The position numbers were made by a program, and so were the translations under genes. Of a stretch of DNA of 64,000 nt, positions 15,101 through 63,900 are shown in pieces. Every line of letters begins with the position of its first letter. The stretch's first letter is position 1. The stretch comes from Geosiphon pyriformis uo1 (taxonomy: Eukaryota > Fungi > Glomeromycota), in assembly GCA_016748015.1 (NCBI GenBank), contig JAAOMT010000523.1, positions 525,757 to 589,756 of the forward strand. Reading direction: 5' to 3'. The notes beneath the pieces were generated by a model that saw nothing but the letters and a program-made list of their open reading frames with translations, had not been told where the DNA came from and did no database searches.

Positions 15101-15833
15101 TTTGCTTAGCAATGCAGTAGTCAATGAGCAAAAAGCTATTACTGCCATGTACACTAAAGCTATAGTAAAAGGAAAGCCCATCTGATTAATTCTAGACAGT
15201 AGATCTACTAAAAGTATCATTACCTATCAATTAATACAACAACTCAATTGAAATGTCAACAGACCAGCCCAAACAGTAATTGTTACAGCAAATGGTATGA
15301 AAAAAACACAGTAAGAGAAATTAACAACTTCCCATTTACCATTGATGGAATTACTATTCTAGTCAAAGTTCTAGTTATGGATGCACCCTAATACTAAGCT
15401 CTTGTCAGAAATGATTGGCTTCTCAAAACCAATGCAAAATTAGATTGGAAAACTCAGGAACTCAAAATCTCATACCAAGAACAATATACCATAGTACCTG
15501 CTACTTGTGGCGCTTTCAACAAATGATCAAAAAAAGCCCCAGTGTTTGAATTTGAGGAGAAAAAGGAAATACCACTTATTGAAACTTATATGGCACTTGA
15601 ATCAACATCCAATTGGGCTAAGGAAACAGAACAAGAGATTTTTAAAGAATCAAGAGGATGGAAGAAAGTTAGGTATTCTATATCAGAACCACAAAAAGAA
15701 TTACCATACATTCCACTAAAATGCAAAGATTATAAGAAAAAGCTTTTATCAATAGAAGCATGTATTTCTCCAGAAAAAGAATATAAAACTTGCACCTGTT
15801 ACTACTGTAAAACATGCCATAAAAAACGATTTG
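12103..15833 (+). mobile_element. Family A element, 5' part: 5' LTR 12103-13073, PBS, gag, protease, start of the Cys-rich domain; truncated
   Basis: LTR matches 48457-49437; TTTGGTGC PBS; gag-like ORFs at 13119 and 13779; LILDS(R)S protease motif near 15185. Confidence 0.88.
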
Positions 15834-16956
15834 AAACAAAGAAGCAATGCAATAAGTAGAAAAATTCATAGAAAGAAACAATCTGATCCTATATTACAAA
15901 GCAACATACTGACTATACACCATTTTCCAACTTTGTCCAAATGTATTGTTGTATAGATTTATAAAGACAATAACAGTTAACAACATAAGACAAATTACCA
16001 ATTAATAATTTGAAGACCTACAAAAAACAATACTCAACACAACTATCAAACATTACACAAACGAAGACATAGGAACAGATACATATGATTTTGCAGAAGC
16101 TCAATTCTAAAAAAAGAGGGATAATGTTATTTGAGTAGAGAAATTGATTCAAAGTTATAAAGAAATGTAATCAGAATATGACATAATACAGAATAGTGCA
16201 CAATAATGTTGAATAATGTGTTATAACTTAGGATAGCACAGGATAATGTATTATAACATAGAATAACACAGAATAACATATAATAACACCAGATAATATG
16301 TATTAATGTAAGATAACTAGTAATAACATAGAAGAACAAAACAATAACAGAAATAACAAAGCAATAATTAGCAATAACAAAACAATTAGAAACAATCCTG
16401 TAAAACCAAAAGAATGTATAAAAGCAAGTAGTTATAGAAGATAAAAAGACAGACAGATAGATATGAACCACTAAACAAGAATCAAATATCCATATTTCTT
16501 TATCATTTATTATATTCTATATTCATCTTCTGAAATAAATTAATTATTAAGAAATTAAAATCATAAATTCATGTTCTTAAACTTTGTGAAATTTACGTAA
16601 ATTAACCATTATTTTATACCTTTATTCCAAGACAAATGCTCTTAACATAACCATTTCGAACTATTAATGATTTGGACCAATTGCTCTTGATTATGACAAT
16701 TGACAATACTAATTTATTTTTTTCTTTTATTTTATTTTATTTTTTTTATTTTCTTTTTCTTTCTTTTATTTTTTTCTTGTGGAGCAGCAACATATTAAAA
16801 TTGACTATCTGAAAATAGACTTTGTAATAGCCTGGTAAAAGAGAGAAGCTTCTAGGTTTTTGGATATTAACATTATCTTGATAGCTTACCAGAAGAGTGA
16901 AAAAACAACACCAAATCCTAATGACTGCACTTGTTAACTCAGAGAAAAAAGCTCAT
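15834..16956 (+). mobile_element. Family C 3' end: ORF3 C-terminal remnant, PPT (aaaaaaagaggg), 3' LTR from 16125, interrupted at 16957
   Basis: Reverse-complement match to ~35470-36600. Confidence 0.85.
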
Positions 16957-20991: not shown

Positions 20992-23900
20992 TATTACAAG
21001 TGATTATTTGGGGTTTTAAATCAAATAACAAACTTATAACTTGGTGCTTAATTGATTTAATAATGTTGGTTTCTGAAAGTTTTGGTTGAGTTTTTTGTAT
21101 AATAGACAGAAATTTACTTATTGTTTATCCATAGCTTTCCAGAACTACAATTTTGTCAAATTTCTTTCTCAATGTAATGGTTGGTAATCTTCTTAATAAA
21201 CTATTCTTAATTGAGTGTTCTATTCTTATTTTTGGGTCTTTTATCAGTTACTTATATCTTGACATTAGTACCTTCATGTGTTAATTCTTTTGAATTAAGT
21301 TAGTAATCCAAATAAACAAAGACAGAAAATCAAATAAAAAAAAATAAAAAGAGAAGATAAAAAGAAAGAAGAAAATAAGCCAAGACAATAAATGTTAGTA
21401 TTTGTTAATAATCATGATCAAGAGCTATTGTTCCAGCATGGTTAAGTATTTGTTACTATCAACATAAAGTGTTGATAGTGGAGAATAGATTGAGATAGTA
21501 AATAATTATTTATTAATATTTGTGAATAAAAAGGTTGTTTAGATTAAATCTAAACTGAGAGATCTGTCTTTTTTTTTTAATGCTACTGCTATATATACAT
21601 AATTAAAATTTTTCAATTCCTCAATTCTTCACACCAGGAATTCTAGAATTTCTGGAATCTTGCAATTCCTTTTGAGAAAAATTCTGGAATTCTAAAATTC
21701 TGTGATTTCTCATACAAAAATTCTGAAATTTCTGGAATCCTGAAATTCTACATTTACTATGGCTACTTCTGATTGGCTAATTTATATGCTAATATACTTC
21801 CTATATTTTATGAGTAACATTATTTTCTTCTCTTTAATATTGAGCTTTATTAAGATCTCTTAATTCTAATTCTCCATTTTTGAGTATTTTTTAAACTTCT
21901 TTTTTGAAAATTACTTGAGTTATCTTGTTCTGTAATTTTTCAAATTGGGCATTAGTTATTTTTTCTATTTGGTTAATGGTAATAGTATCTATTGCCAAAT
22001 TAAGTAAGATTTCTGGTCGGTCTTGAAATTCAGTATGTAATTGATAAATAGCCTTGTTTGTGTTGTTAGATTGTTCTTTCTCACAAATTTCTCAAGTTGT
22101 TGTAATATTGTTGTATCAAATAATCGTCTTGTTTTATCTGTATATAAGTTTTGGATATTTAAATGTTGTTTCAAGTGGAAATAACAAAAGTTTTTTGGAA
22201 ATTTTTGTATTTACTACTTCCAAGTTTTTTTAGTTACTTCTTAATATAGAATGACACTTGTTGGCTCTTCTATTGCCAATTTCACTTTTAGAATTATTTT
22301 GTTGACAGTGTTTTCTGTTTTCTTTTGTACTTTGTATTAAGGTATTTTCCTGGTATCTTGGTATCAAATAGTTTGTTGGTTGATAGTAATTTCTATGTTC
22401 TGTTGTTGAATTAGTTAGAAAAGTTGTTGTGCCAGTATATGTATATTGTTGGTAATTTTCATTTTCTTTTTGTTGTCTTTGTTGTATATACTGTGTTTTT
22501 ATATACTCTTTTGGTTGTTTAATTTGATATGTTTGATTCAATGATTATAATTAGTTCCAGATCTTGTGGAATCTTATCTGGTTGGACTAGTATTTATTGT
22601 ACTCTCAGTTGTGGAATGTTATTGGTAGATAATGATACTAAATAGTAATATGATTTCAGTCAATTACCATGTGCTGCTTTGGCTAAAATTTTGTTGTCCT
22701 ATCATAATTTATAAGCTCCATTTTCAAGAATTTTTTCTATGTGAAATGGTTTATCTCATTTGGGGTCGAATTTTCCACTCCATTGTTTCTCTGCTTTAAT
22801 ATGATATAGAAGTACTTTGTCTTCAATTTTGAATTCAATTAGTTTATCTGGTAGTTGGTTATTGTGTTTTTTTTTGTTTTTCTTGTGACTTCTGGATGTT
22901 ATTAGCTGCTTTTCGCCATTTGTTTTCTAGTGTTTCCATTAAGTCATATGTTTTTCTCAACAATGTTCTTTGGAAATTCTCTTCTGTTATTGGTTCTGTT
23001 GGATATATTTGTATTTTTATCTTAACTGGTAATATTGCTGTTTTACTGTATATTAATTCAAATAGTATTGCTTGTATAGTGTCTTGCTTCATTGTCCAAT
23101 AAGCAAATAATACTGATAGTATAACCAAATCTCATTTGTCTTGGTTTTTTTGACTGATTTTGGTGATTGCTTCACACAATGTTCTATTGAATCTTTCAAC
23201 TAGTTTATTGGTTTGTGGATGATATGGTGATAATAATGATTTTTTTATCCCAAATCTTTGACTTAATTCTGTTAATGTTCTATTCACAAAGTGAGTTCCT
23301 TGATCTGATAATAGTTCTTTTGAACATCTGTGTTGACAAATTAAATCCTAATAAATGAATTCAGCAACAAATTCTGTATCTGCTCTTTGAATGGCTTTTG
23401 CTTCTGGCCATTTAGTGAGATAATTTATGGCTATTGTAATATATCTGTTGTCTTTGCTGGTGATTGTTAATGGTCCAACTAAGTTAATTCCAATGTGATT
23501 GAATAGTTGTTCCACTTTAATTGGTCTTAATGATTTACTGGGTTTTGTTCCTCTTCTTCTCTAACAAGTATTACAATTTTGAACATATTGGATAATATCT
23601 GGATATATTGATGGCCAATAGTATCTTTTTCTGGTTCTTTTCATAGTTGCTTCTTTATGAAAATGTCTTGCTGTTGGATCTGAGTGCATGTTGAATAATA
23701 TTGTCTCTTTTTTTGATTTTGTAATTACTCTGGTTAGTTGATCTGAATTTCTTTTGTTCTTTTGGTAAAGTATATTTTAATGGTTGATAAAATATTTTGA
23801 TTGTTGTTTTATGTTGTTTTGTTCTTTTTGAGATAATTTCTTCTTAAACTGTTAAGTATTTATATAGTGCTGGAGTTGTTAATATTTTTGTGTATTCATC

Positions 23901-32920: not shown

Positions 32921-32974
32921 ACAACCAAAAGAGTATATAAAGACACAGTACACATGACAAAATCAACCAAGAAA

Positions 32975-33610
32975 ATGAAAATACCAGATTATATTCACAC
33001 TTTAGCTCAACAATTGTTCCAAGCCTTAAGTAAACAACAGTTAGATATAGAAATTGTTATTAACAACCAAATAATTTGCTATTGAAACATCCAAAAAAAA
33101 ATAAAAAATACACCATACTAGCAACCACCAAAGAACAATAAAAACTGGACAGATAACTTAATAGAAAAAGTAAAGAACACTTTTGAGAAAATACCTGTTA
33201 TGGTATCAACAGAAAAGCTTACAAAAGAAAATTGGAAGCAATGAACAGAACGACTTCCAATATCATATTGCTACTACCAGTTAGGTCAAAAATTAAATAT
33301 TCAGGAGTTGTATATTAACAAATCCAAGAAAATATTTAACCAAAACATAATACAACAAATTAAAAAATTTATTGGAAAAAAACCGAATTCAACACTATAT
33401 GTTAGAACAATATACTGACTATACAACATATTTCAAGACTATTCAGAAATACTGTTACACTCTGACATGGAAACCATAATCATTAATCAATAAGGAAGAA
33501 TGAACAATACACAAGTAGAAGACATAAAAAACAGAGTCAAACAAACAATACTTGAAAAAGAAGTATTAGAATTAATTCAAAACGAAAATTTTGATGGAGC
33601 TCAATATTAA
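32975..33610 (+). pseudogene. ORF3: conserved accessory protein of unknown function (~210 aa), family B
   Basis: LAQQLF...IEIVINNQIICY...YCYYQLGQKL...RTIY*LYNIFQ...TIIINQ*GRM; homologs in families A and C. Confidence 0.75.
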
Positions 33611-35262
33611 AAAAAAGAAAATAATATTATTCATAGAAAAAAGAAAACAGATATAGAAAAATAGTAAACCAATAGAAGAGTAGTAGTTAGCACATGAGCA
33701 CATTGCTTAGCAATATAAAGCAATGTTAGAAATCACAGCACATTGCTCAGCAATATAGAGCAATGTTAAGAAAATATGACATATTGCTTAGCAATATGAG
33801 CATTGCTTAAGAAATTATAGCACATTGCTCAAGAATGTGAACAATCTTGTAGAACCCAAATTATGTATATATAGCAATAGCATTAGAAGTAAAAAGAGCA
33901 GAATCCTTCTATTAGAAAACTTTTCAGTTTAGATTTGATCTAAGCAACCTTCCATTCACAAATATTAATAAATAATTATTCACTATCTCAATTCACTCTT
34001 CACTATCAATCTTTCATGTTGATAGTAATTGATACTTAACTATACTGGAACAATAGCTCTTGATTATGACTATTGACGGAATACTAACTTGCAATTGCTT
34101 TTCATTATTTCATTATTTTCTTTTATTTTCTTTTATTTCTTTTGTTATTTCTTTGGGTTTTATTAAATTGATTAAGAATTAAGCACTAAGATACAGACGT
34201 CATAGAGACTGGTAAAAATCTTGTGAAATAAGAGTAGAACACTTATAAATTTGAAGATAGCTTACCAGGAGAATTACTGGCCACTATACTGAGAAAGAAA
34301 TTCGATAGAATTGTGATTCCAAGAGGCTACTGAAAACTACTATTAAATCTCTGTTCATTATACAAAAAACTTCACAACAAAATCTTCAGATAAAACAACA
34401 TCTTCAGATATTACCAACTAATCACCAAGTTATGGATTTGTTATTTGACTTAAGACCCTAAATAATCATCTGTAATACCATCCAATTATACTTGGTGTTC
34501 TTTGTTTGGAGCTGATGTAATAATTGAACTATTTTAGAAAAGTTTTTGATAAAACAGCAGTAGTATTCCACAAATTCCAAGAATGCTCATAATTCAGTCA
34601 AGTTGGTAGATACTGGAAAGTTTTTGATTATCTCAATTTTGTCTGGATCTGTTTTGATTCCATCTTTGCTTACTATATGTCTCAAAAATTTTAATTCTGT
34701 TTTTCTAAAGAAGCATTTGTTGGCATTTAACTTTAGTCTTGCTCTTTTTAGTTTTTCAAATACTTATTGGAGATAATGCAAATGCTCATCAAATATCTTA
34801 AAGAACATATTAATGTCATCCAGATATACAACTACTGATTTCCATAGCAGTCCAGTATAGACAATTTTTATGAGTCATTGAAATGTGGTAGAAGCATTTA
34901 TCAAGCCAAATGGCATAACCTTGAATTTGAAATTCTCTTCTCATATTGTAAAAGCTGTTTTCTCTTTATCTTCTAGTTTTATGGCTACTTGTCAATAATC
35001 ACTGTCTAAGTCTAAAGTCAAAAACAATTTTTTTTCTCCAAAAGCATTGAAAAGTTTTTGGATCTTTGGAGTTGGGTAGCTATCTCCCTTAGTTACTTCA
35101 TTAAGTTTCTGGTAATCCACACAAAAATGGATTTTTCTATTCTTCTTATGAACTAGTACCACTAATAATGACTATAAGCTCATTGATAGTTGAATTAATC
35201 CATTATTCAACATCCAATTGATTTTTTGATAAATAATCTTATGGCTGGCTAGTAGTACTTGG

Positions 35263-38200
35263 TGTTATGGATAAACTTAATAAAGTAGAAAGATGGTAAT
35301 ATTTGGTGCTCTCAATTATTGGTAAGACATGTTTCACATAATTTTGGTAGCTTAATCTTGATTATCAGTCTTTGAAGGTCTTATTTTATTGGTTGTGAAT
35401 TTATCTGTTGAGTTTTTTGGTTATAAGACACAAAGTTTTGGTTCTTGCTAATTGCAACTTCTTATAAAGATGAGCTTTCTTTTCCGAGCTAATAAGTGCA
35501 GTTGTTAGGGTCTAACATTGTTTTTTTGTCTTTTTGGTAAGCTATTAAGATAATGTTAATATCCAAAAACCTAGAAGAAGCTTCTCTCTTTTACTAGGCT
35601 ATCACAAAATCTATTCCTAGACAGTTGATTTTACTATGTTGCTGTTCCACAAGAAAAAAAGAAAAAAAAGAAAAAGAAAATAAAAAAAAAGAAAGAAAAT
35701 AAAAGAAAAAGATAAATTAGTATTGTTAATTGTCATGATCAAGAGCAATTGGTCCAAATTGTTAATAGTTTGAAGCAGTTATGCTAAGAGCATTTGTTCT
35801 AGAACAAAAGTATGAAACAATGATTAATTCACGTAAATTTCACAAAGTTCAAGAACATAAATTTATGATTCAGATTTCTTAATAATTGATTTATTTCAGA
35901 AGATGAATATAAAATATAATAAATAATAAAGGAATATGGATATTTGATTCTTGTTTAGTAATTCATATCTATTTGTCTGTTTTTCTACCTTCTACAACTA
36001 CTTGCTTTTATACATTCTTTTGGTTTTGCAGAATTGTTTCTGATTGTTTTGTTATTGCTAATTATTGCTTTGTTATTTCTGTTATTGTTTTGTTCTTCTA
36101 TGTTATTACTAGTTATTCTACATTATAACATGTTATCTGGTGTTATTATATGTTATTCTGTATTATTCTACATTATAACACATTAATCTGTGCTATCCTA
36201 AGTTATAACATATTATCCAACATTATTGTATGCTATCCTGTGTTATGTTACATTTTGGTTATGTTTTTTTATAATTTTGGATCAATTTCTTTACTTGGAT
36301 AATATTATCCCTCTTTTTTTAGAATTGAGCTCTTGTGAAATTGTATGTATCTGTTTCTATGTCTTTTTTTGTGTAATGTTTGATGGTTGTGTTAAGTATT
36401 GTTTTTTGTAGGTCTTCAAACTGTCAATTGATAATTTGTCTTATGTTTTTAACTGTTATTGTCTTTATAGATCCATACAACAGTACATTTGGACAAAGTT
36501 AGAAAGTAGTATATAATTGGTATGCTGCTTTGTAATGTAGGGTCAGGTTGCTTTTTCTTATGAATTTTTCTACTTGTTGCATTGCTTCTTTGTTGAAAGT
36601 TTTCTGGCTAAAGTTTCATATGGTGTCTTTAAGTTTAATTGTTTACCTATTTTGTAGAACCAATAAGCTGAAAAAAGTCTTTCTTTCCATTCTTTTGTGT
36701 TGTCTGGTGTCTATTCCCCTGTTTCGGGAAGATCAATCTTATAAGCTAAAGCTTCTTTAATTTCTTTGAGTTTGGGAACCAAGTATCTTCTTTTATAAAC
36801 TTTTTCTCATTCCTTCACTCTTTTTTCAAGCCATGCCCAAGACAATTTAATTTCTTTTTGTAAAATTTCTTTCTCAGATGGAGTGTAGAGATGAGAATGA
36901 TTAATTTTAGTTGAACTTATGCCCATCTCTTTCTTGCTTCTATCTTTATAGCATATTTTTTTTCTATTAATTGTTACTTCTATTTGAGGAGAAAATTGTT
37001 GAATTGCATCAAATAGTTGTTTCGAAAGTTGTAAAATTTGATCTGACAAGTTTATGTTGAAAGTTTTATTGTTTTTTGCTGTTTTTCAAATGCTATATAT
37101 ATTTAAATTCCTTAATTTAATTTGCTGTACATTGTCTATGTTTTAATGACAATGATTGGTTTCAGATCTCATAATATATTTTCTGGTCTGATTAATGAAA
37201 TTTGTATTCCTAGCTGAAGTACTGATAATAATAATTTCTGTTTTACATGATAAATTTTTAACCAATTTCTATGCATTACTTTTTTTAAAATTCTGTCTTT
37301 CAATCGTAATTTGTAAGCTCCATTTCCTAAAGCTTCATGTATGTGGAATAGACTATTCCACTTTGGGTCAAACTTTCCACTCCACTGTTTTTCAGCTTTT
37401 GTACAATATAATAGTACTTGGTCTCCAATTTTAAATTCCATTAGTTGTTCTAATAGGCGATTATTATGTTTTTTTTTTTGTCATTCTTGAACATAACTAA
37501 TATTGTCAGCTGCTGTTCTTTGATTGTCTTCCAATATTTCTATTAGCTGATACATTCTTTGGTATAAGATAGCTTCAAAATTTTCTTTGTTGATTGTTTT
37601 TGTTGAGTATAATAGTATTATTTGTTCAATTAGTAACATAGTTTTTCTTTTATAGACTAGTTTAAATGGTGTGAACTAAGTTGTATTTTGTTTCAATGTT
37701 CAGTATACAAAGAGTACAGAAGATATAAATAAGTCTCATTCTTGTTTGTTTTCATGACTTATTTTTGCTAGTGCTTTGCACAGTGTTTAGTTAAATTGTT
37801 CTATTAGTCCATTCATTTGTGGGTGGTATAGTGACGATAAGAATTGCTTTATTTCAAACTGTTGACTTAGTTCAGTTAGTGTATTATTAATGAAATGTGT
37901 TCCTTGATCAGATAATAATTCTTTCAGACATTCATGTTGGCAAATTAGGTCTTAATACACAAATTTGGCTACTGTTTTGGCATCGGCCACTTAGATTGCT
38001 CTGGCTTTTGGCCATTTTGTAAGATAGTTTATGACTACAATAATGTAACAATTTTTTTTGAATGTTATAAAGAGAGAACCAACCAAATCAATCCCAATTC
38101 TATTAAATGGATTTCCAACTGGAATGGGTTAAAGTGGTTTTGTTGTTCTGGCTCCTCTTTTTTGCTGACATAAGTTATAATTGAGCATGTATTCAAAAAT

Positions 38201-40298: not shown

Positions 40299-43200
40299 TA
40301 TTACAGGTGATTATTTGGGGTCTCAAATCAAATAACAAACCCGTAACTTGGTGCTGGATTGATATTTTGGCATTGATTTCTGAAGATTCTGTTGATTTGA
40401 AGGTTTTGTTGTGGAGATCTTTGTATAATAGACAGAGATTCAGTTGTTGTTTTAGTAGCCTCCTGGAATCACAATTCTGTCGAATTTTTTTTTAGTGTGG
40501 TAGCTGGTAATTCTCTTGGTAAGCTATTCTTAAATCTATGAGTGTTCTATCCTTGTTTTATGGGTTTTTTACCAGTCTCTATGACATCTGTATTCCAGTG
40601 CTTAATTTTTTAATCAATTAGTAAATAATATCAAAGAAAATAAAAAAAAATAAAAAATAAGAAATAAGCCAAGGCAATAATGGTTAGTATCCTGTCAATA
40701 ACCATGATCAAAAGCTATTGTTCTAGTGTGATTAAGTATCAATTACTATCAACATAAAGTGTTGATAGTAGAGAGTAGATTTGAGATAAAAAATAATTAT
40801 TTATTGATATTTGTGAGTTAAAAAATCACTTAGATCAAATTTAAACTGAGAGGTCTGTTTTTTTTTATTTTTAATGCTACCACTATATATACATAATTGA
40901 AATTTCTCAATTCCTCAATACTTTACACCAGAAATTCTAGAATTTCTGGAATTTTGCAATTCTTTTGAGAAAAATTTTGGAATTCTGGAATCCTGCAATT
41001 CTTTGTATAAGAATCTTGAAATTCCTGAAATTCTGCAATTTCTCTGAAAAAAATCCTGAAATTCCATATTTTACTACAGTTACTTCTGATTGACTAATTT
41101 ATATGTTAATTTACTTTCTATATTCTATAAGTAACATTATTTTCTTCTCTTTAATATTAAGCTCCATCAAGATCTCCTAATTCTAATTCTCTGTCTTTAA
41201 GTATTTTTTGAACTTTTTTTCAAGAATTACTTGTGCTATCTTGTTCTGTAATTTTTCAAATTAAATATTTGTTATTTTTCCCATTTGGTTAATGGTAATG
41301 AAGTTTATTTCTGGATTGAGTAAGATTTCTGAAATTCAGTGTGTAGCCAATAAATGGCTTTTGCTTGTATGGTTAAATTGTTCTTCCTCATAAATTGTTT
41401 CAGTTGTTGCAGTATTGTTGTGTCAAATAATTATTTTGTCTTATTCATATACAAGCTCTGAATGTTCAAGTGTCATCCCAAATAAAAGTAACAAAAGTTT
41501 TTTGGAAATTGTTGTATCTACCAATTCCAAGTTTCTATAGTCAATTCTTGATATTGGGTGATTTTTGATTGTGTTTCTATTGCCAATTTTACTTTTGTAA
41601 TTATTTTGTTCATAGTATTCTCTGTTTTTCTCTGTATTTTATTTTATGGTTTTTTTCTGGTGTTTGTGTATTTGATAGTTTGTTGGTTGATTGTGATTTC
41701 CATCTCTTGTTGTTGTATTAGTTAAAAAAATTGTTGTGCTAGTGAGTGAATGTTGTTAGTAATCTCCATTTTTCTGCTGTTTTTTTATTGCATATCCTGT
41801 GTTTTTATATATTTTTTTGGTTGTTCAATTTTATGTGTTTGGTTCAATGATTATAATTGGTTTTAGATCTTGTGAAATTTTATCTGGTTTGACTAGTATT
41901 CTTTGTACTCCTAATTGTGGAATATTAATGATAGATAATAATACTATATGGTGATATTGTTTTAGTTAATTACCATATGCTGCTTTGGTTAAGATTTTGT
42001 TGTTTAACTTTAATTTATAAGCTTCATTTCTAAGAATTTCTTCTATGTAAAATGGTCTGTCCCATTTGGGGTCAAATTTTTCATTCCATTATTTTTCTGC
42101 TTTAGTACAATATAAAAGTACTTTGTCTCCAATATTGAATTCAACTGGTTTCTCTAGTAGTTGGTTATTATGTATTTTTTTTTGTTTTTTTTGTGACTTT
42201 TGGATGTTATCAGCTGCTCTTCACTGTGTGTTTTCTAGTGTCTTCATTAAGTCATATGTTCTTTTTAACAATGTTCTTTAAAAATTCTCTTCTGTTATTA
42301 ATTCTGTTGAATATGTCTTGACTTCTATTTTAACTGATAATATTGCAGTTCTACTGTATATTAATTCAAATGGTGTTGTTTGTGTAGTGTTTTGTTTTAT
42401 TGTCCAATAAGCAAATAATATTAATGGTATAATTAAATTCTATTTGTCCTGGTTTTCTTGGCTGATTTTTTTAATAGCTTCACACAATGTTCTATTAAAC
42501 CTTTCAACTAACTCATTTGTTTATAGATAGTATAATAATGATAATGGTCTTTTTATTTCAAATCTTTGACTTAATTCTGCCAATGTTCTATTTACAAAGT
42601 GAGTTTTTTGATCTGATAGTAGTTCTTTTGGACATTTGTGTCAACAGATCAAATCTTGATGAATGAATTCAGCAATAGATTCTGCATTTGCTCTTTGAAT
42701 GGCTTTTGCTTCTGGCCATTTAGTGATATAGTTTATGGCTACTGCAATATATTTGTTGTCTCTGCTGGTTATTGTTAATAGTTCGACTAAGTCAATTCCA
42801 ATACAATCAAATAGTTGTCCCACTTTGATTGGTCTCAATAGTTCACTGGGTTTTGTTCCACTTTTTCTTTGACAAGCATTACAATTTTGAACATATTGAA
42901 TAATGTCCAGATATATTGATGGCCAATAGTATCTTTTTCTGGTTTTTTCTATGGTTGCTTTTTTGTGAAAATGTCCTGCTGTTGGGTCTGAATACATGTT
43001 GAATAATATTGTCTCTTTTTTTAGTTTTGTGATTACTCTGGTTGATTGATCTAGATTTTTTTTGTTCTTTTAGTAAAGTATATTTTGATGGTTGATAAAA
43101 TATTTTGATTGCTGTTTTATATTGTTTTGTTCTTTTTGAGATAATTTCTTCTTGAACAATTGGATATTTATATAATATTAGAGTTGTTGGTATTTTTGTA

Positions 43201-48456: not shown

Positions 48457-49484
48457 TGTTATCAGTAGAATTTTAGCTATTAATTAGCAGGAAAATTACC
48501 CTTATAATTCCTATAATTAATTAGTATATTAATATCATTCCAAATTATCATTTATTATTTAATCAATTATCACATATCACGATTTAATTAAATAATCCAA
48601 TTAGTATAACAGAAAGTAAAATGATCAAATTACACAATACCCTGAACTTTGTAACATTCAAAAATTCGCCAAAATTTACAAAAATTCGCCGAAATCTATA
48701 AGAAATTCGCCGAAATTATGAATAGTTCACCCAAATTAATCAATAGTTCAGCAAAATAACTTGTAGTCCATCAAAATGTATCTTTAGTTTGCCAAAATTT
48801 GAGCAAAGAGAAAAAGTGCAAGTTCATAGACTAATACTACAACAAGTTGTAAAAAAGAAGAGCTTTTTTCTTCAAGAAAATGTATCTTACTTTAGATTTA
48901 TCACTTAGAACCATTCCTACACACACAAAAAGAAATAAATATCAAATAATTCGAAAAACCAAATTCTTTAATTATTGTACTTGGAAAATCCCCAAAACCC
49001 AATTAACGTTTTGAAATTGATTAGCTACCAATTTCAGTAAACTGTTAGTGACTCCAGGCCTGTATAGAAAACGTTTCTCTTAACAGAATTCAATTTCTTT
49101 TACTTTTCTTTTATTTTCTTATTATAATAATTAGGATAGCCTACAGACAAGATTCTTATAGAAGAGTTGACTTTCACAACAAAGTAACTACACATTTTTA
49201 GTAAGCTTCCAGACGAGCAATTTTTGGGAAAGAGTTGACATTTACTATAACATAACTACATAAAATAACTGGCAAAAAATTGGTCATTCTACTTAGAAGC
49301 CCAGCAGTTCAAATTATAGGAGATAATTTGAAGATAAATTCAGTTACTGGAGGTCCAACTACTTCCTGGAAACGTGAATTCATAGCAAATTAACATTAAC
49401 AACATTCAAGAAAAGAGACCAAAAACCACCAGTAAGATTTGGTGCTCTTTCACGGAAATAACACAGCAAACAACAAACTTCAAA

Positions 49485-52400
49485 GTGGCAACCACACCAG
49501 ACACAACAATTCTAGAGTATTATCAGTTAATTTACACCCATTGCAAGCAGAGATTTAACATCCCAGACAGAATTGAAATTGTTGAAAGAACACTCTACCA
49601 ATATATTAAAAACTGTATTAACAATTATCTTCTTGGAAATTACAACATTTCAGAAGTTAGAAGCAATCTTTACAATAATCTAGTGCACTATTCACAATTA
49701 AGAACTGAAGATCTTAACAGTGAAACACTTGCCATCTACTTTCAAGAACTCAATTACAACATTATCAAGTATTGTGAAGAAAAATACCCAGTACAGTCTA
49801 AATACTCTCTTGACTTTGAATCAGAAACAGAAACAGACAACAAAGGCAAACAAAAAGTGAAACAACACTCAAAAACTGCTCCAAACACTCCAATACTACC
49901 AAAGACAACTGCCAAACACTTGCAAACACCTGAACAAGAAACAAGTGTCAAATTACCACTTTCTATTACACCATTTCCAATTTCACTTGCTCGACCACAA
50001 ACACCAAATTCATCACTTAACCATTTTTTCAGACCAGAAGATTTTCAGTCACCTAGAAATCCTACTTAACAGCAGAAACCTATATTAACAAGCACTAATA
50101 TTATTGAATACTTGCAGAAAAACGAAAGTGATCATTCAGAAAATTTGGAAAGTGAAGAAACTGAATCAGAACAAGGAGAAGCCACAGAAAATAAAAAGGA
50201 AATAACAACTGCTTACATTGCAAAAATTCCAGAATTCACTGGTGAAGACAATAATACCAGTCCTCAAGAATGGCTTGACAAAGTTCAAAAAGCAGGAGAT
50301 ACAAATGGTTGGATTGCAGCAAGAATGCTCAAAGCAATTCTCTACATTCTCCAAGGAACAGCAGAAGAATGGTTTGAAAATTTAGAAGAACCATTTGAAA
50401 ACTGGCAAGTATTCAAAGATGCTTTTCTACAACAATTCACCGACAACAATATCTCTATCACTCTCAGAAATTGCTTTTGCAATATCAAACAAGAAACATC
50501 TGAAACTGTTATGACTTATCTTGGAAGATTTAACAAACTTCTCAGATGAATCCAACAATTGAAAACCAATGACTACTATTCTGATGCTCAAATTCTGAAT
50601 TAGTTTATAGCAGAGTTAAAAGACAAACTGATTAAGAAAGTCTGTCCACATGCTCCAGCAGACTTAGCAACTGCTATTAGACATGTAAAAAGCTATAAAA
50701 TAGCAATGGAAGAAGCAAATCACAGCAAACTTGTAAACTTTACAATTAGAGAAACCAGTTCAGCAGCTGAGAAGAAGATAGACCAACTCACAAAAAAGGT
50801 TCAAAGCTACTTCACAAACCAACAATAACAGCAACAACAACCACAAAGATATCAACCCCTACAATGATGCAACCAAAACAATTTTGGATCACCATCCAAC
50901 AACCAACCTCAAAATTGTCATTATTGTGGAATTCCAGGACACTGGAAACAAGATTGTAGAAAATTACAAAGAGACCAACAAAACAGAAGTAATCAATGTT
51001 ACTCTTCACCACAACAATTTTATTACCAATCTCCCCCACCAACTTATTATTTACCAAGACCACAAAATCAAAACAGTTACTATCTACCAGCTCTACAACC
51101 AATGCAGCAACAATATCAGCAACTTTTACCAATTCAGCCATATCAGACACCACCCACTCAACAATATCAAGTACCAGCAAGAAGATTGATTTAACATAAC
51201 CAATTTACACTCCAAAATCAATTGCAGAGTAACAACAACAGAATCAATCCAAATAACCAGTTGGTTCCCCGAAATTCTGGTCAGCAAAGACCCAATTACT
51301 ATCACACTCAATCCAGTTATCTTACAATACCAGAGGAATCAGATTTTCAACAAACTGCACTTTCTGAAGGTAAAGTTGCAGCACCAAGATCAAACCCTTC
51401 CAACCACAACATTCTACCAGCTCAAATTGCCCAAAATGCCAATTTGTCAGATATATTTCTATTTGAATTTGAAGCAAATAAATCACCATTTCTGTTTAAT
51501 AATACAGCAGTTAATCAACAGAAAGCAATTACTGCTATGTACACAGAAGCTATAGTGGAAAGAAAACTCATTCGCTTAATCTTAGATAGTAGATCGGCTG
51601 GAAGTATCATTACTTACCAGCTGATACAACAACTCAAACGAAATGTAAACAGACCAGCTCAAACAGTTATTGTCACAGCTGATGATATGAAGAAGACTCC
51701 AGTAAGAGAAATTGATAATTTCCTCTTTTCAATTGATGGAATCACCATTCCAGTTAAAGTTCTTGTTATGGATGCACCCCAATACTAAGCTCTAGTCAGA
51801 AATAATTGGCTTCTTAAGGCCAATGCAAACCTGAACTGGGAAATTCAAGAACTTAAAATTTTATATCAAGAACAATATACCATAGTACCTGCAACTTATG
51901 GTACCTTTAACAAATGATCAGAAAAAGCTCTAATATTTGAATTTGAAGAAGAAAAAGAAATGCCACTTACTGAAACCTACATGGCTCTTGGATCACCATC
52001 CAATTGGGCTGAGGAAACAGAACCAGAGATTTTCGAAGAATCAAGAAGATGAAAGAAAGTTAGATATTCTACACCAGAATCACGAAAAGAACCACCATAC
52101 ATTCCACTAAAATGCAAAGATTGCAAAAAGAAGCTTTCATCTATGGGAGCCTGTATTTCCCCAGAAAAGGAATACAAAACTCACACTTGCTACTTCTGCA
52201 AGGCATGCCATAAAGAATAATTTGGATTCCCAAAGAGAAGTGGAAAATGGGACAAAACTCCTTGTCTTACTTGTGGAGAAAGACTACCAGAAGAATGCAA
52301 TTGGATTGATGTAGCAATGAGAGGAGGAGTATGTAATTAAACCTGTCAATATGCTCTATCAATTTCGGAAAAAGTCAGAAGAAAAACACTATTTGATGCA

Positions 52401-55109
52401 GCATACAACAGTGCTTTCAATAAATGTTACCACTACCCTCATAATGCTGAAATAATTTTTGACTTAGCAATGGCATTGATCAATAGAGCCACCCAAGAAG
52501 ATGTTTGCCAAATGAAAGAAGCTAAATACATTGAGTATACTATGGAATTAGCTGGATTTGATTATGAAGATAAAGTAGAAACCTACCACCAAATTGCAAG
52601 TCACACATATCCGACCAAAAAAGCTCAAATTCAATGATTAGAGCAAATAAACATTCAATTGTGTGAAGAATGTGTTATGCCTTGTGATGACCAATGGTGT
52701 TTAGAATGTTATGCTCTTAGCATTCCTCTGCTGGATGAGAATGATGAAAATGAAATCGAATTTGGAGTATTTAAACTAGTAGAAAAACTACCAACCACCC
52801 CATTCTATCTTCTTAAAAAGCAACTACCTCTACAACTTAAATATTTTGACAACCATGGCCAAGGAATCAGACCAGAAAAAACACACAAAATTGATGCCAG
52901 ATATGACCTAAGATACCCAGAAAAAGATACTTTGGTTCTCCAACCAAAGTCTTTGACAAAAATCAATCTCAAAATTGCTCTTGAAATTTCACCTAAAGCA
53001 ATAGTTCAAATTGCCTCCAGATCATCATTGGCAAGCAAAGGAATCAATATTAGAGGAGGAGTTATAGATGCAGGATACATTGGAGATATTATCATCATGT
53101 TGCAGAATGTAACAGACAAACCATTTAAGATTGAACATGCTGAAAAAATTGCTCAAGCAATTTACCTACTCTTAATCAATATTTCGGGTCTACAATCAGT
53201 TAACAACAGAGAACAATTGGGAAAAAGTGAAAGAGGAATTCAAGGTTTTGGTTCAACTAGACGATTTACAGTTCTAGTAAACATAGCTCTTAAAATACAA
53301 AATGAATCTCATCAGATTCTTCAACTTCCCCAACCAATTACTATTTCACCTTTTGGAGAACATCACGAAATTTACACTTGCTCAAAACCCACTACTACCC
53401 AACAAATCTTTGAATCCAATAAACAAATCTGTTTGAAGCATGAAATCTCAATTCCAAACATTTATATTTCCAAAGGAATAAAAAAATTTTGAGTTACATT
53501 TTACAATCCCAATAATTACTCTATTGTTTTATTAAACAAATTAGAGATTAGAATCATACACAGCAATATTTTTCAAGATGAAAACCCTCAAATTGTCTCT
53601 AATTTTATCGAAATTGTAAGGCACACTCTACTCCCAAATCCAAATATCATTTCCATCACTGAAAACTACCATCTTTTGAAAGAAAAACTCTCTTATATCA
53701 ACATGAGTCTCTTAGAACCTCAACAACAAAGACAATTGAAACAATTGATAGCTGAATTTCCAAATATATTTGCAAAAAACAACAATGATCTAGGAAAAAT
53801 GGATATTGTTCAACATCAGATCCATACAAAAGATGCTCCACCAAAATGTCAGCAAGCTTACAGAGTGCCACCTGCCAGTTACCAATTCATCAGAGAAGAA
53901 GTCCAGAGAATGCTTAATAACGGATTGATTCAATCATCAAGAAGTCCTTGGGCCTCACCAGTAGTCTTTGTCAAAAAGAAAAATGGAAAAATCAGATTTT
54001 GTGTTGACTATTGCCAATTAAACAGTGTGACAATTGGAGATGTCTACCTTCTTCTAAGAATTGATGACATGTTAGATGCTTTAGGAAAAGCCAAGTTTTT
54101 CTCAACTTTGTACTTAGAAAGTGGCTACTGACAAGTCGAAATGGACCCAAAAAACTGACCCAAAACAGTATTTACCACCCAAGGAGGAAACTATGAGTTC
54201 AATGTTATGCTTTTTGGACTCTGCAATACACCAACAACATTCCAATGACTCATAGATGTTGTATATAAAGAACTCTTATGGCAATCAGTAGTTGTTTATC
54301 TTGATAACACTAATGTATACTCACCAAGCTTTAAAGCCCACCTCATTCACCTGCAAAAAGTTTTTCAATGATTATGGAAAGCAAGATTAAAGTTAAACAT
54401 TGAAAAATATCACTTTGGAAAAACAAGCTTGATTTTTCTTGGACACATAGTTAGTAAAGATGGAGTCAAACCAAATCCAGGAACAATTAGTGCTGTCAAA
54501 AACTTTCAAACTCTCAGAAATACCACTGAACTACAAGGATTTATAGGATTAGCCTCTTACTATCAAAAATTCATAAAAAAATTCTCAAAAATTGCCAAAC
54601 CACTCAATTATCTTACCAACAAAAATGTGCCATACAAATAGACTGAAGAACAACAAAAAGCTTTTGAAACTCTCAAAACAAAATTGACAACAGCCCCAGT
54701 TCTTGCTTACTCAGACTTCAACAAACAGTTCTAATTAGCCACTGATGCTTCACACATAGTATTTGGTGTCATTTTATCACAATTAGATGAAAATGGGCAA
54801 GAACAAGTCATTGCCTATGCTAGTAGAACACTCAAATCAACAAAACTAAAATATGGCTCAACTGAATTAGAAGCTGCTGCAGTCATCTGGGCTCTTAAAC
54901 ATTTTCAACAATATCTGAAGAATGGAAAAGAATTTAACATTATAACAGACAATATTGGTCTTAAATGGCTCAATAAAAAGAAAATTGAACAAAGTACCAA
55001 ACAGTCTTGATGGAATGACTTCTTAGCAGACTACAAATATATTGTACATCACAAACCAAGAAAAATACACACTAATGTTGACAGCCTCTCAAAGATGAAA
55101 CAATATTAA
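49485..55109 (+). pseudogene. ORF1 of element A: Gag (CHYCGIPGHWKQDC), protease, Cys-rich domain, dUTPase, RT, RNase H in one frame
   Basis: ORFs at 49485, 50112, 51222, 52659, 53676 and 54429 are all in the same frame; SPWASPVV, RFCVDY, YLDN (from YLDD), ATDAS. Confidence 0.92.
52836..53261 (+). pseudogene. dUTPase domain (family A) with all five motifs
   Basis: DARYDL, ASRSSLA, GGVIDAGYIG, KIAQAI, ERGIQGFGST. Confidence 0.93.
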
Positions 55110-55165
55110 TACCAACATCAACACCAATAAACTGAACAGCAGAACAAACAACAAAATCAACAACA

Positions 55166-56550
55166 ATGAATCCAGAAAACTACAACAACATCAAAAACTA
55201 TTTGGAGACCCTCACCATGCTAGAAAATTGGTCCCCAAGTAAAAAACATCGATTACAACACCAATTCAAACAATATTTTATACACCACAACAAAATCTAT
55301 TACAAAAATCGTAAAAACCCAAACCAACCACTCAGATTAGTACAAGAAAATGAAAAAGAAACAATTTTATATAACATGTACACAGATCCGGCTTCAGCAC
55401 ACTTGGAAAGAGATGGAACAATTCAAAGAACTCTTGAACATTATTTTTGGCCTTACATGCAAAAAGACATTTGATAATATGTAGAATCTTGTGATAGTTG
55501 TTAAAGAAGAGGAGAAACTCACTCCACAGAACCTTTAAATCCAATCAAAGTTGGACAACCATTTGACAGAGTTGGAATTGATTTAGTCGGATTATTATCT
55601 ATCACAACCCAAGGAAATTACTATATTGCAGTAGCAGTAGATTATCTTACCAAATGACTTGAAGCTAGAGCCATCCAAAGAGCAGATGCAAAATTAGTAG
55701 CAAATTTTATCTATGAAGACATTATTTGTAGACATAGATGTCCAATTGAACTCTTATCTGATCAAGGAACACATTTTGTGAACAACTTGATACAAGAAAT
55801 TTGTGAATGATTCAATGTCAAAAGACCTCTATCATTGCCTTATTACTTTCAAACAAATAGACTTGTAGAATGTTTCAACAGAACATTGTGTAAATCATTG
55901 GCCAAAATCTCAACAAATTTTGAGCAAGAATGGGATATCTTTATTCCATCAGTGTTATTAGCATACAGAATACTTAAACAAGATACTATGAAACACACAC
56001 CATTTGACCTTACTTATGGAAGGACAGCAACATTACCAATTAATTTCACAGTAAAAACATACCCAGTGCAACCAATTAATAAAGAAAACTTTCAAAAAAC
56101 ACTTCAAAGAAGGGCCTACACTCTTCTCAGTACACTGGAAGGAAAAAGAAGAATAGCAGCAACTCACATTGAACATTCCCAAGCTCAACAAAAAAAAAGA
56201 CATGACAACAAATTACCACCCATTATCAACGAATTAAAGTTGGAAATAAAGTTCTCTTACATAGAACTAAGGCTGAAAAACAATGGAGTGGAAAATTTGA
56301 AAACAAATAGGACAGACCATTTTATATTCACGAAATTTTAGGCAATGAATTATACAAGTTAAGACTTGATGACAAAATACTAGCAAAAGTTGCACATAGA
56401 GACAGATTGAAACACTATTATTTCAGAAACAATCCTGAAACATTAATTCCACAAATTGGTACATATTCCTCTTTAATTAATTCTGAAGATATTCCCCAAA
56501 ATTTAGAACCAATAATTATAATAGAACAACAACCAAACTTAAACACTTAA
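55166..56550 (+). pseudogene. ORF2: integrase, family A
   Basis: Own ATG, in a different frame from ORF1; VGIDLVG, LSDQGTHF, LVECFNRTL. Confidence 0.88.
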
Positions 56551-56692
56551 ATTTTACAATAATTCTCTAATAAAAACACAAAGACAAAAATAGTAAATAA
56601 TTACAAAACACCCAAAACCAAAAACAAATAAAAACCTCATATCCAAAAATAATTTTCTTTATTCTCTCTTTTCATAATTAGTCAATTTTATC

Positions 56693-57398
56693 ATGATTAT
56701 TCTCCGAAATATTCAACAAATATCCCAAAAGTTAATGTTAATCTTGAAAATACTTCCTGACTTATCCATAATGATTAATGGAAGTCAAATTAATTATATT
56801 CAGAAAGAAACCACAGCCCCAGTAGCAAATTATTCACAGAACTATCACTCCTATAAAAAAAACAAGAAGTCACTCTGAAAATAGGTTACCAAGACTTTTA
56901 AAGCAAGCACTAGAAGAAAATTTTTTAATTGCTCCTATTGACATTCCACCAAATACTACAATGCAACAAAAACTTCTACTACTTTTCAATAAACAGAACA
57001 ATGAACACACTTCTATTTATAAATACTTTCACATTGGAAAGACACTTTATGAACGAAAACTGGAACTTGAAACAACAAATCTTACTCCTAAAGCTATAAA
57101 AAAACAAATTCATAATGAATTCAAAACAGCAGCTGGACCAACAAACACTTACTACAAACTTAGAGCAGCTTTTAGACTCTATGATTTGTTTAATACTTGT
57201 GAAAATGTTCTACAAAATCTAATACTGCAACCAATGAAAGTCCAATACATTGGCAAACTCACAGAACTGAAATTTCAACAATTTTCAGACCAGATTACTT
57301 CAATTATTTTAGATCACTATCTCAATATCATAGATAGTGCTTGGACTTTGATAGAGCTCAGTCTTGAGAAGAAGATTATGTTACCAGTAGAATTTTAG
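56693..57398 (+). pseudogene. ORF3: accessory protein, family A (one frameshift)
   Basis: ORFs 56693-56878 and 56961-57398; YFHIGKTL...RAAFRLYDLF...VQYIGKLTE. Confidence 0.75.
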
Positions 57399-58368
57399 CT
57401 ATTAATTAGCATGAAATTACCCTTATAATTCCTATAATTAATTAGTATATTAATATCATTTCAAATTATCATTTATTATTTAATCAATTATTACATATCA
57501 CGATTTAATTAAATAATCCAATTAGTATAACAGAAAGTAGGATGATCAAATTACACAATACCCTGAACTTTGTAACATTCAAAAATTCGCCAAAATTTAC
57601 AGAAATTCGCTGAAATTTATAGAAATTCGCCAAAATTATGAATAGTTCACCCAAATTAATCAATAGTTTAGCAAAATAACTTGTAGTCCATCAAAATATA
57701 TCTTTAGTTTGCTGAAATTTGAGCAAAGAAAAAAAGTGCAAGTTCATAAACTAGTACTACAACAAGTTGTATAAAAGAAGAGCTTTTTTCTTCAAGAAAA
57801 TGTATCTTACTTTAGATTTATCACTTAGAACCATTTCTACACACACAAAAAGAAATAAATATCAAATAATTCGAAAAACCAAATTCTTTAATTATTGCAC
57901 TTGGAAAATTCTCAAAACCCAATTAACGTTTTAAAATTGATTAGCTACCAATTTCAGTAAACTGTTAGTGACTCCAGGCCTGGATAGAAAACGTTTCCCT
58001 TGACAGAATTCAATTTCTTTTATATTTTTTTTATTTATTTTTTATTTTCTTATTATAATAATTAGGGTAGCCTACAGACAAGATTCCTATAGAAGAGTTG
58101 ACTTTCACAGCAAAGTAACTACACATTTTTAGTAAGCTTCCAGATGAGCAATTCCTGGGAAAGAGTTGATGTTTACTATAACATAACTACATAAAGTAAC
58201 TGGCAAAGAATTGACCATTTCACTTAGAAGCCCAGCAATTCAAATTATCTCCTATAATTTGAAGATAAATTCAGTTACTGGAGGTCCAACTACTTCCTGG
58301 AAACGTGAATTTACAGCAAATCAACATTAACAACATTCAAGAAAAGAGACCAAAAACCTCTGATAACA

Positions 58369-60944: not shown

Positions 60945-63900
60945 TGTTACCAGTAAAATTTTAGCTATTAATTAGCATGAAATTATCTTTATAATTCCTA
61001 TTATTAATTAACATATTAATATCAATTCAAATTATCACTTATTATTTAATCAATTTATCACATATCACGATTTAATTAATAATCCAATTAGTACAACAGA
61101 AAGTAAGATGATTAAATTATACAATATTCTGAACTTTGTAGCATTCTAAAATTTGCCGAAATTTACAAAAATTCGCCGAAATTTATAGAAATTCACCGAA
61201 ATTATGAATAGTTCACCCAAATTAATCAATAGTTCAGCAAAATAACTTGTAGTCCATCAAAATGTATCTTTAATTTGCCAAAATTTGAGCAAAAAGAAAA
61301 AGTGCAAGTTCATAGACTAGTATTACAACAAGTTGTATAAAAAAAGAGCTTTTCTTTTCAAGAAAGTGTATCTTACTTTAGATTTATTACTTAGAACCAT
61401 TTCTACACACACAAAAAGAAATAAATATCAAATAATTTGAAAAACCAAATTCTTAATTATTGCACTTGAAAAATCCCCAAAACCTAACTAATATTTTGAA
61501 ATTGATTAGCTACCAATTTCAGTAAATTGTTAGTGACTCCAGATCTGGATAGAAAACGTTTTCTCTGACACAATTCTATTTTTTTTACATTTCTTTTATT
61601 TTTTTTTTATTTTTTTATTACAATCATTAGGGTAGCCTACAGACAAGATTCCTGTAGAAGAGTTGACTTTCACAGCAAAGTAACTACACATTTTAGTGAG
61701 CTTCCAGACAAGCAATTCCTGGGAAAGAGTTGACAGTTACTACAATGTAACTATACAAAATAACTAGCATGAAATTGGCCATTCCACTTAGAAGCCCAGC
61801 AGTTCAAATTATAGGAGATAATTTGAAGATAAATTCAGTTACTGGAGGTCCAACTACTTCTAGAAAACGTGAATTTACAACAAACAGACATTAACAACAT
61901 TTAAAAAAAGAGACCAAAAATCTCCGGTAACATTTGGTGCTCTTCTACAGAAATAACACAGCAACAACAAACTTCAAAGTAGTGACCACACCAGACACAA
62001 CAACTCTAGAATATTATCAGTCAATTTACACCCATTGCAAGCAGAGATTCAACATCCCAGACGGAATTGAAATTGTTGAAAGAACACTCTACCAATACAT
62101 TGAAAACTGTATTAACAATTATCTTCTTGGAAATTACAACATTTCAGAAGTTAGAAGCAATCTTTACAATAATCTAGTGCACTATTCACAATTGAGAACT
62201 GAAGATCTTAACAGTGAAACACTTGCCACCTACTTTCAAGAACTCAATTACAACATTATCAAGTATTGTGAAGAAAAATACCCAGTACAGTCTAAATACT
62301 CTCTTGACTTTGAATCAGAAACAGAAACAAGCAACAAAAGCAAACAAAAAGTGAAACAACACTCAAAAACCACTTCAAACACTCCAATACTACCAAAGAC
62401 AACTGCCAAACACTTGCAAACACCTGAACAAGGAACCAGTGTCAAATTACCACTTTTTATCACATCATTTCCAATTTCACTTGCTCGACCACAAACACCA
62501 AATTCACCACTTAACTGTTTCTCCAGACCAGAAGATTTTCAGTCACCTAGAAATCCTACTCAACAGCAGAAACCCATATCAACAAGCACCAATATTATTG
62601 AATACTTGCAGGAAAATGAAAGTGATCATTCAGAATATTTGGAAAGTGAAAAAACTGAATCAGAACAAGAAAAAGCTACAGAAAACAAAGAGAAAATAGC
62701 AACTGCTTTCATTGCAAAAATTTCAGAATTCACAGGTAAAGATAGTCATACCAGTCCTCAAGAATGGCTTGACAAAATTCAAAAAACAGAAGATGCAAAT
62801 GGTTGAAATGCAGCAAGAATGCTCAAAACAATTTCATACTTTCTCTAAGGAACTGCAAAAAAATAGTTTGAAAACTTAGAAGAACTATTTAAAAACTGGC
62901 AAGCATTCAAAGATGCTTTTCTATAACAATTCACCAACAACAACACCTCTATCACTCTCAGAAACCGCTTTCGCAATATCAAGCAAGAAACATTTAAAAC
63001 TGTTATGACCTATCTTGGAAGATTCAACAAACTTTTCAAATGAATTCAACAATTGGAAACCAATGACTACTATTCTGATGCTCAAATTCTGGATCAGTTT
63101 ATAGCAGAGTTAAAAGACAAACTAATTAAAAAAGTCCACTCACATGCTCCAGCAGACTTAGCAACTGCCATTAGATATGCAAAGAATTATGAAATGGCAA
63201 TAGAAGAAGCAAATCACAGCAAGCTTGTAAACTTTGCAATTAGAGAAACCAGTTCAGCAGCTAAGAAAAAAATAGACCAACTCATAAAGAAGATTGAAAG
63301 CTATTTTACAAACCAACAACAACTGCAGCAACAACCACAAAAATATCAACCATCACAGTGATGCAACCAAAACAACTTTGGACCACCATCCAACAACCAA
63401 CTTCAAAATTGTCACTATTGTGAAATTCCAGGACACTGGAAACGAAATTGCAGGAAACTACAAAGAGACCAACAAAACAGGAGTAATCAATATTACTCTT
63501 TACCACAACAATCTTATTACCAACTTCCACTACCAACTTATTATTCACCAAGACCACAAATTCAAAACAGCTATTATCAACCAGCTTCACAACCAATTCA
63601 ACAACAATATCAGCAATCTTTACCAATTCAGCAATTTCAGACACCACCCACTCAACAATATCAAGTACCAGCCAGAAGATTGGTTCAATATAACCAATTC
63701 ATATCTCAAAATTAATTCAGTAATAATAACACCAGAATCAACCCAAACAACCAGTTGATTTTTCGAAATTCTGGTCAGCAAAGACCAAACTACTTTCACA
63801 CACAACCTAGTTATTTAATAATACCAGAAGAATCGGATTTTCAACAAACTGCACTTTCTGAAAGTAGAGATACAGCACCAAAATCAAATCTTTCCAACCA

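Follow-up and report, generated by a model that had tools for sequence, protein, structure and literature searches.

The Ty3/gypsy retrotransposons of Geosiphon pyriformis carry a third open reading frame (ORF3) behind pol. ORF3 is real and makes up an undescribed family of accessory genes in fungal Ty3/gypsy elements, separate from pol and under purifying selection. What is new here, on circumstantial evidence, is that ORF3 appears to form an exchangeable unit with a lineage-specific array of repeats in the U3 region of the LTR. The literature covered, mostly open-access papers without supplements, contained no description of this ORF3 or of a transactivator encoded by an LTR retrotransposon.

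We analysed a stretch of 64,000 nucleotides (the window), which is AT-rich and packed with nested, decayed Ty3/gypsy LTR retrotransposons encoding gag, protease, dUTPase, RT, RNase H and integrase. The order LTR-gag-PR-RT-RH-IN-PPT-LTR assigned these elements to Ty3/gypsy, and among solved structures the RT of element B matched Ty3 best (E 1e-31, vs 1e-12 for foamy virus). Inspection of the ends of elements A and B, which are decayed and nested copies, found no exact 5-bp match as a target-site duplication. The CpG observed/expected ratio of the window was 0.14. Element A was read from Pfam matches, translations and the sequence itself as follows:

48457..49437, + strand: 5' LTR of A, with its array at 48659-48717, followed by a PBS-like TGG stretch from 49440
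49386..56550, + strand: decayed gag-pol of A (gag, protease, Cys-rich insert, dUTPase, RT, RNase H, integrase)
56242..56550, + strand: C-terminal SH3-like domain of the integrase, tail and pol stop codon (SH3_Tf2-1, E 1.5e-4, below the curated cut-off)
57366..57375, + strand: polypurine tract (PPT) of A, within ORF3
57379..58368, + strand: 3' LTR of A, 93% identical to the 5' LTR

Several other features of these elements were recorded. In the Pol of A (51789-52850, + strand) and B (28200-29260, + strand), protease and dUTPase are separated by a Cys-rich stretch of some 250 aa that contains several CxxC clusters; it had no Pfam match above cut-off and is possibly an undescribed zinc-binding insert. 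Upstream of the gag capsid domain, A has a long N-terminal region without a Pfam match (49386-50066, + strand), which is also open in a second A copy at 61931-62806. A Spuma_A9PTase match at 53493-54128, immediately ahead of RT, was limited to model positions 88-160, and we read it neither as a second protease nor as a link to foamy virus. Sister LTRs differed chiefly by transitions (43/9, 78/4 and 132/11 transitions/transversions), as scored mostly in non-CpG contexts. Every LTR type has a long U-rich tract in its 3' half (e.g. 49094-49125 and 58013-58057); the tract in A ends in TAATTAG, as does the one before ORF3. A solo LTR at 8575-9580 (- strand) bears a B-type array of about five units, and a 57-nt unit is repeated in 7.8 tandem copies in very AT-rich DNA at 2243-2685.

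The window contained seven copies of ORF3, belonging to four types:

56693..57398, + strand: ORF3 of A, frameshifted in a run of A near 56854-56861, its last 20 nt in the 3' LTR; intact relatives are up to 90% identical
32975..33610, + strand: ORF3 of B, in frame with several stops, 83% identical to the intact 211-aa protein P0121
11263..11895, - strand: ORF3 of B2 (B type); the LTR behind it has a B-type array
41150..41769, - strand: ORF3 of D1, from the survey of copies in the window
21835..22462, - strand: ORF3 of D2; the LTR behind it has a D-type array (about 21638-21748)
36320..37055, - strand: ORF3 of C1, with a TATA-like box 46 nt upstream
15763..16110, + strand: ORF3 of C2, C-terminal half only; the LTR behind it has a C-type array (about 16183-16288)

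The initial annotation had described a conserved frame in three families, A, B and C, lying between integrase and the PPT. These families are real, and type D has to be added to them. The position is right for B, B2, C and D, in which ORF3 ends at the PPT; in A it overruns the PPT and enters the 3' LTR (start 57379). The motifs quoted for the frame were found at 56717-57240 (+) in A, at 33002-33494 (+) in B and, for the N-terminal part of C, at 37028 and 36986 (-). The C core motifs LYTIF and VNNIRQIT had been placed within 36807-37049 and really belong to the second C copy, at 15913 and 15976 (+). Nor is 56693-57398 the single open frame it had been taken for: one frame runs from the ATG at 56693 to about 56851, and the remainder (190 aa) is read in another frame at 56826-57398, on account of the break in the A-run. 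The natural intact proteins had 235 aa in A (P0013), 239 aa in A' (P0079), 211 aa in B (P0121) and 244 aa in C (P0125), the initial estimate having been 210-240 aa.

Five of the six integrase cores in the window were followed by ORF3, and the sixth, that of element E, led directly into an LTR. Element E (18644-20991, - strand) has an integrase 66-68% identical to those of B and D, abuts an LTR start with a D-type array near 18642, and has neither ORF3 nor a PPT; the junction is a nested insertion or a deletion. A GAGCTC-like hexamer directly 5' of the PPT (57352-57357, 33596-33601 and the equivalents) is kept in A, B, B2, C and D; the ORF3 frame across the hexamer differs in A, and the hexamer is possibly a cis element.

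The DNA identity between A and B ORF3 was 0.58, the level of shuffled sequences being 0.60, in agreement with the low identity reported at the outset. The two types are nevertheless homologous as judged from their sequence profiles: hhalign aligned them over 188 columns with a probability of 90% and an E of 1.6e-6. A protein profile built from A only found C1, C2 and D1 at iE 2.8e-5 to 1.4e-4, and the best iE in the reversed window was 0.49. A tree built from 34 sequences (27 of 187 proteins and the seven window pieces) placed A and A' apart from B, C and D, and grouped B with D (100/98). Word-based searches restricted to near lengths returned hypothetical proteins of G. pyriformis in all cases (the best 120 of 199 matches, 4/4 and 68/68). 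The metagenome contigs, viral contigs and plasmids searched gave no relative of ORF3.

Selection was estimated with a codon model including kappa; counting-based dN/dS was dropped, as non-coding LTRs also gave 0.46-0.79. Omega was 0.36 for B/B2 (198 codons, p 1e-3) and below 0.1 for B/D1 and B/D2, pairs that are saturated, so that only the direction of the latter values is reliable. The short and recent pair C1/C2 gave no significant selection (omega 0.58, p 0.24, 85 codons). Three of the four pairs were thus significant, with omega of 0.36 or lower. Among the controls, shifted frames gave omega of 0.52-2.07 and LTR pseudo-codons 0.74-1.70, none of them significant.

The pol stop codon and the ORF3 start are 59-145 nt apart, and the ATG of ORF3 occupies the same homologous position in A, B, D and the intact C proteins. 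The integrase ends upstream in its own SH3-like tail and stop, and no structural domain was matched, so a known domain split off from integrase was not found. The initial view of ORF3 as a conserved, helical non-Env ORF was supported, and the frame proved to be selected and separate. Two further signals lie in the spacers:

32934..32941, + strand: TATA-like box 41 nt before the B ORF3 ATG, in a 59-nt spacer
56650..56681, + strand: pyrimidine tract ending in TAG 11 nt before the A ORF3 ATG; top 30-nt pyrimidine window (24/30) of the A internal region

A TATA motif 41-46 nt upstream of ORF3 occurred in five of the six copies having an upstream region (B, B2, D1, D2 and C1), which represent two independent lineages, against a background of 15 such motifs in 23,490 nt of internal sequence. 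No TATA was found in the A spacer, where the pyrimidine tract is a candidate splice acceptor or promoter element.

The AF2 model of the full-length protein (mean pLDDT 60) comprised a low-confidence N-terminal helix and hairpin, a basic linker and a helical core, with residues 108-160 at a pLDDT of about 90; the mean of a core-only model was 65. Three core helices were predicted in both models at a pLDDT of about 80-90, in line with the helical look noted earlier. The ORF3 types have in common a helix of the pattern aromatic-x-aromatic-x-x-[IL]-G-x-x-L, an Asn preceding helix 3, and a helix 3 tail that ends in LY-x-x-F. Helix 3 had a net charge of +2 to +3 in the four proteins scored, the proteins as a whole being only mildly basic (pI 7.0-9.3), and all types have the basic linker between the two domains. 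The maximal 19-residue hydropathy was 0.44-1.04 in all five intact proteins measured, without a hydrophobic N-terminal stretch, which upholds the earlier statement that no TM segment is present.

Searches of Pfam, NCBIfam, PHROGs and PDB sequences and three fold searches gave no significant relative of ORF3, and no HTH or other DNA-binding family exceeded the cut-off. Foldseek returned no match with E below 0.001 in PDB and BFVD. The best VIA Z scores (6.5 and 6.1) were to unrelated helical chains and lie within the background for helical models. These fold results do not prove a new fold. Two weak matches covered the three-helix core, both in A-side members only: DUF1016_N (PF17761) in 6 of 47 members, with a best E of 0.028 and 12.9 bits vs the Pfam cut-off of 32.8 bits, and phrog_23683 in 26 of 47 members, with an E of 1.4e-4. 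DUF1016_N is a DNA-binding domain; we regard both matches as a weak lead and not as membership. An NCBIfam match to FtsQ (8/32, E 4.6e-4) was taken as chance, as was a phage tblastn match (E 0.2) lying opposite an annotated gene. The first results of an Atlas feature search were Mucoromycota clusters (0.92-0.93), which may be ORF3's own.

In U3, between the beginning of the LTR and its TATA, every lineage carries a distinct array of short near-palindromic repeats. The arrays, and the block in which B and D differ, are located as follows:

57583..57637, + strand: A-type U3 array, three 20-nt near-palindromic units keeping CpG, with a TATA-like box downstream at about 57770
33697..33829, + strand: B-type U3 array of palindromic units
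40932..41054, - strand: D-type U3 array of D1
36098..36226, - strand: C-type U3 array of C1
32975..33850, + strand: block of about 880 nt (ORF3, PPT and U3 array) in which B and D differ, both flanks being common to them

The A arrays retain 3-5 CpGs in about 55 nt. An array of the matching type lay downstream of ORF3 in 7/7 copies, a count that is partly circular, the patterns having been drawn after viewing these LTRs. In cross-matches, the D pattern occurred singly in A LTRs and the B pattern singly in C2. The array motifs were clustered in U3 only and were not enriched beside the internal TATA. Repeat arrays in U3 are ordinarily enhancers for host factors.

B and D have RNase H and integrase in common, as well as the TATA-bearing spacer, the PPT and the part of the LTR that begins at the LTR TATA, with transversions of 0.3-9%. 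From the ORF3 ATG to the end of the array, their transversions rose to 15-29%. Inside the block, B differed from D1 by 175 transversions in 837 positions and from D2 by 164 in 825; outside it, the counts were 62/2426 and 61/2410. Fourfold-degenerate sites were changed at 5/13 and 4/10 in the block vs 2/48 and 1/59 in integrase (p 0.004 and 0.001). Because transversions and changed fourfold-degenerate sites are both higher inside it, the block is older than its flanks, and the fourfold-degenerate excess points to exchange rather than to fast amino-acid change alone. The same-type pairs B/B2 and D1/D2 showed level divergence and the same array type. Exchange by recombination is the best reading of the block.

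The comparison of B with D amounts to one independent contrast, and smaller steps in divergence show that these elements are mosaic in other regions too, with transversions of 4.8% in RT vs 1.5% in RNase H for B/D1, and of 3.7-8.1% in the 3' half of the LTR. The pairing of ORF3 with its array could be explained by adjacency alone, as any two crossovers carry both. We also compared 120 proteins of A and A': 52 on the A side had one U3-encoded tail, 51 of A' had the other and 17 had no tail. This set contained no discordance between ORF3 and tail, but also no A/A' chimeras at all, and is hence non-discriminating.

We tentatively propose, as the most likely of the readings compared and by analogy with known systems, that the ORF3 protein is a self-specific transactivator or anti-silencer that binds the U3 array of its own lineage and thereby activates or de-silences its own element. 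A nucleic-acid-binding regulator had already been suggested in the initial annotation, and the ORF3 and U3-array block, the lineage-specific palindromic arrays and the internal TATA lend the regulator role indirect support. ORF3 would be made from its own small transcript, started at the spacer TATA in B, D and C or possibly obtained by splicing in A. The protein would enter the nucleus, with the basic linker serving as nuclear signal, and its predicted core (a helix, a turn with a near-invariant Asn and a mildly basic helix) would read DNA, perhaps as a dimer on the palindromic units; the acidic tail might be the effector surface. Protein and target would be a matched pair selected to stay together. 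Recombination during reverse transcription would move this pair as one cassette, so that a lineage could change its regulatory identity and keep its enzymes. The presumed benefit would be escape from methylation-based silencing in a strongly CpG-depleted genome.

The closest competitor of this proposal, itself somewhat unlikely, is that ORF3 is a protein of conflict with the host or with other elements (a suppressor of RNAi or methylation acting via proteins, or a copy-number or exclusion factor against sister elements), to which the U3 array hitch-hikes. In its favour, ORF3 is far more divergent than pol: between A, B and C the core identity was 18-38% for ORF3 vs 46-51% for the integrase core. 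In a related fungus, TEs are subject to small RNAs and methylation, according to the available text of bioRxiv 10.1101/2021.03.30.436303, and the mosaicism of other regions also fits. However, this explanation does not account for block edges lying exactly at the ORF3 start and just before the LTR TATA, or for ORF3 and array staying together across the conserved PPT, an easy crossover site. A matched cassette is also predicted, and the B/D block equally well accommodated, if the target of ORF3 is the U3 repeats in their RNA form, where the genomic transcript has its 3' end, with a role in Rex-like export, 3'-end processing, packaging or strand transfer; we consider this quite unlikely. The basic linker of all types would suit RNA binding, and some arrays fold well, with z of -3.7 (B 3' LTR), -4.2 (D1) and -2.3 (C1). 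Yet only these 3/10 arrays were below -2, 0/3 A arrays folded, and sister copies differed in structure; moreover, palindromic units fold by construction, and Rfam gave no match in the window.

Two explanations leave U3 aside. It is decidedly unlikely that ORF3 is a particle- or integration-associated helper, such as a capsid partner or a factor that brings the integration complex into the nucleus, tethers it to target sites or aids movement through coenocytic hyphae. The place of env is occupied by ORF3, which follows nearly every integrase core, and a closterovirus coat cluster appeared in the Atlas search (0.92), a weak lead of low recognition. A partner of Gag or integrase would be expected to travel with them, yet B and D keep pol and change ORF3, and no capsid fold was matched. 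That ORF3 is a degenerate Env, an extension of integrase by read-through or a captured sequence without function is very improbable and largely refuted. The position is Env-like, and some database gene models, which are annotation predictions on decayed copies, fuse the integrase tail to ORF3 (e.g. P0006, P0014 and P0046). Against an Env stand the absence of a TM segment and a length of 211-244 aa only; against an integrase extension, the own ATG after the pol stop, the SH3-like domain upstream and the absence of an ORF3 Pfam match above cut-off; and against a non-functional sequence, the purifying selection on the frame.

Additional ORFs located between pol and the 3' LTR form a recognised class, whose function is mostly an open question in the available text of PMC7264820. 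ORF3 resembles the aORF-3S of that paper and the ORF3 types of bdelloid rotifers (PMC5408684), as far as the accessible parts of both describe them, in position, orientation, family-wide occurrence, modularity and exchange between lineages; it is likewise a separate sense ORF with a frame under purifying selection. In the accessible part of PMC5408684, rotifer lineages with ORF3 also carry dUTPase, like the Geosiphon elements. The types described there have TM/env-like, GDSL esterase, DEDDy nuclease or coiled-coil features, whereas Geosiphon ORF3 is soluble, matches no family and comes with a lineage-specific U3 array. Maize Grande gene23, as PMC7264820 reports it in the text available, is likewise an accessory gene; it lies in the 3' internal region, has a promoter of its own and encodes a nuclear protein with a proposed regulatory role. 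Unlike ORF3, it is an antisense gene of a plant, and Pfam scans of ORF3 gave no sequence match to it.

The proposed mode of action finds its nearest likeness in the VANC proteins of VANDAL transposons. Their targets are tandem repeats that differ between related TEs and vary together with the VANC proteins, according to the available texts of PMC5735166, PMC6719617, PMC13547354 and PMC12859917. As portrayed in the parts of PMC5735166 and PMC6719617 at hand, the two systems share an accessory protein that varies more than the core enzyme, tandem motifs that are short and differ between related elements, and a methylating host. They differ in that VANDAL is a plant Mutator DNA transposon, with VANC motifs spread over several non-coding regions, and in that binding and demethylation have been demonstrated for VANC and are a proposal for ORF3. 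VANC, in the same accessible literature, has DUF1985/DUF287 (MAIN-like) domains; these were absent from the Pfam matches of ORF3 at E up to 1 (47 members; 38 members, with 25 of 29 families listed).

Foamy virus Tas binds internal and LTR promoters (PMC517496, available part). Tas/Bel1 offers a further analogy, as far as the sources available describe it, in an accessory ORF just before the 3' LTR, an internal TATA upstream and action on the own LTR, which for ORF3 is proposed. In contrast to foamy virus, the Geosiphon elements are Ty3-like and lack env; homology to Tas was absent, and the internal TATA has no copies of the array beside it. By sequence, ORF3 lies outside the VANC and Tas families; its mode of action may be similar.

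It is possible, though doubtful, that these elements are 'complex' fungal LTR retrotransposons, with their own sequence-specific transactivator or anti-silencer and a cognate enhancer array, on a cassette of about 0.9 kb (internal TATA-ORF3-PPT-U3 repeats) swapped between lineages. The intact natural proteins of three types (A, B and C) and the four candidate arrays allow a direct comparison of cognate and non-cognate pairs. Without array binding, ORF3 remains an undescribed, selected accessory gene family. If the cassette reading is true, an undescribed helical domain would underlie four or more orthogonal pairs of protein and target, and VANC- or Tas-like self-activation would be at work in an LTR element, with a new small DNA-recognition domain in orthogonal versions. 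LTR elements make up 41.2% of the G. pyriformis genome in the available text of PMC11952901, and such self-activation could help to explain the LTR burst that covers about 41% of it.
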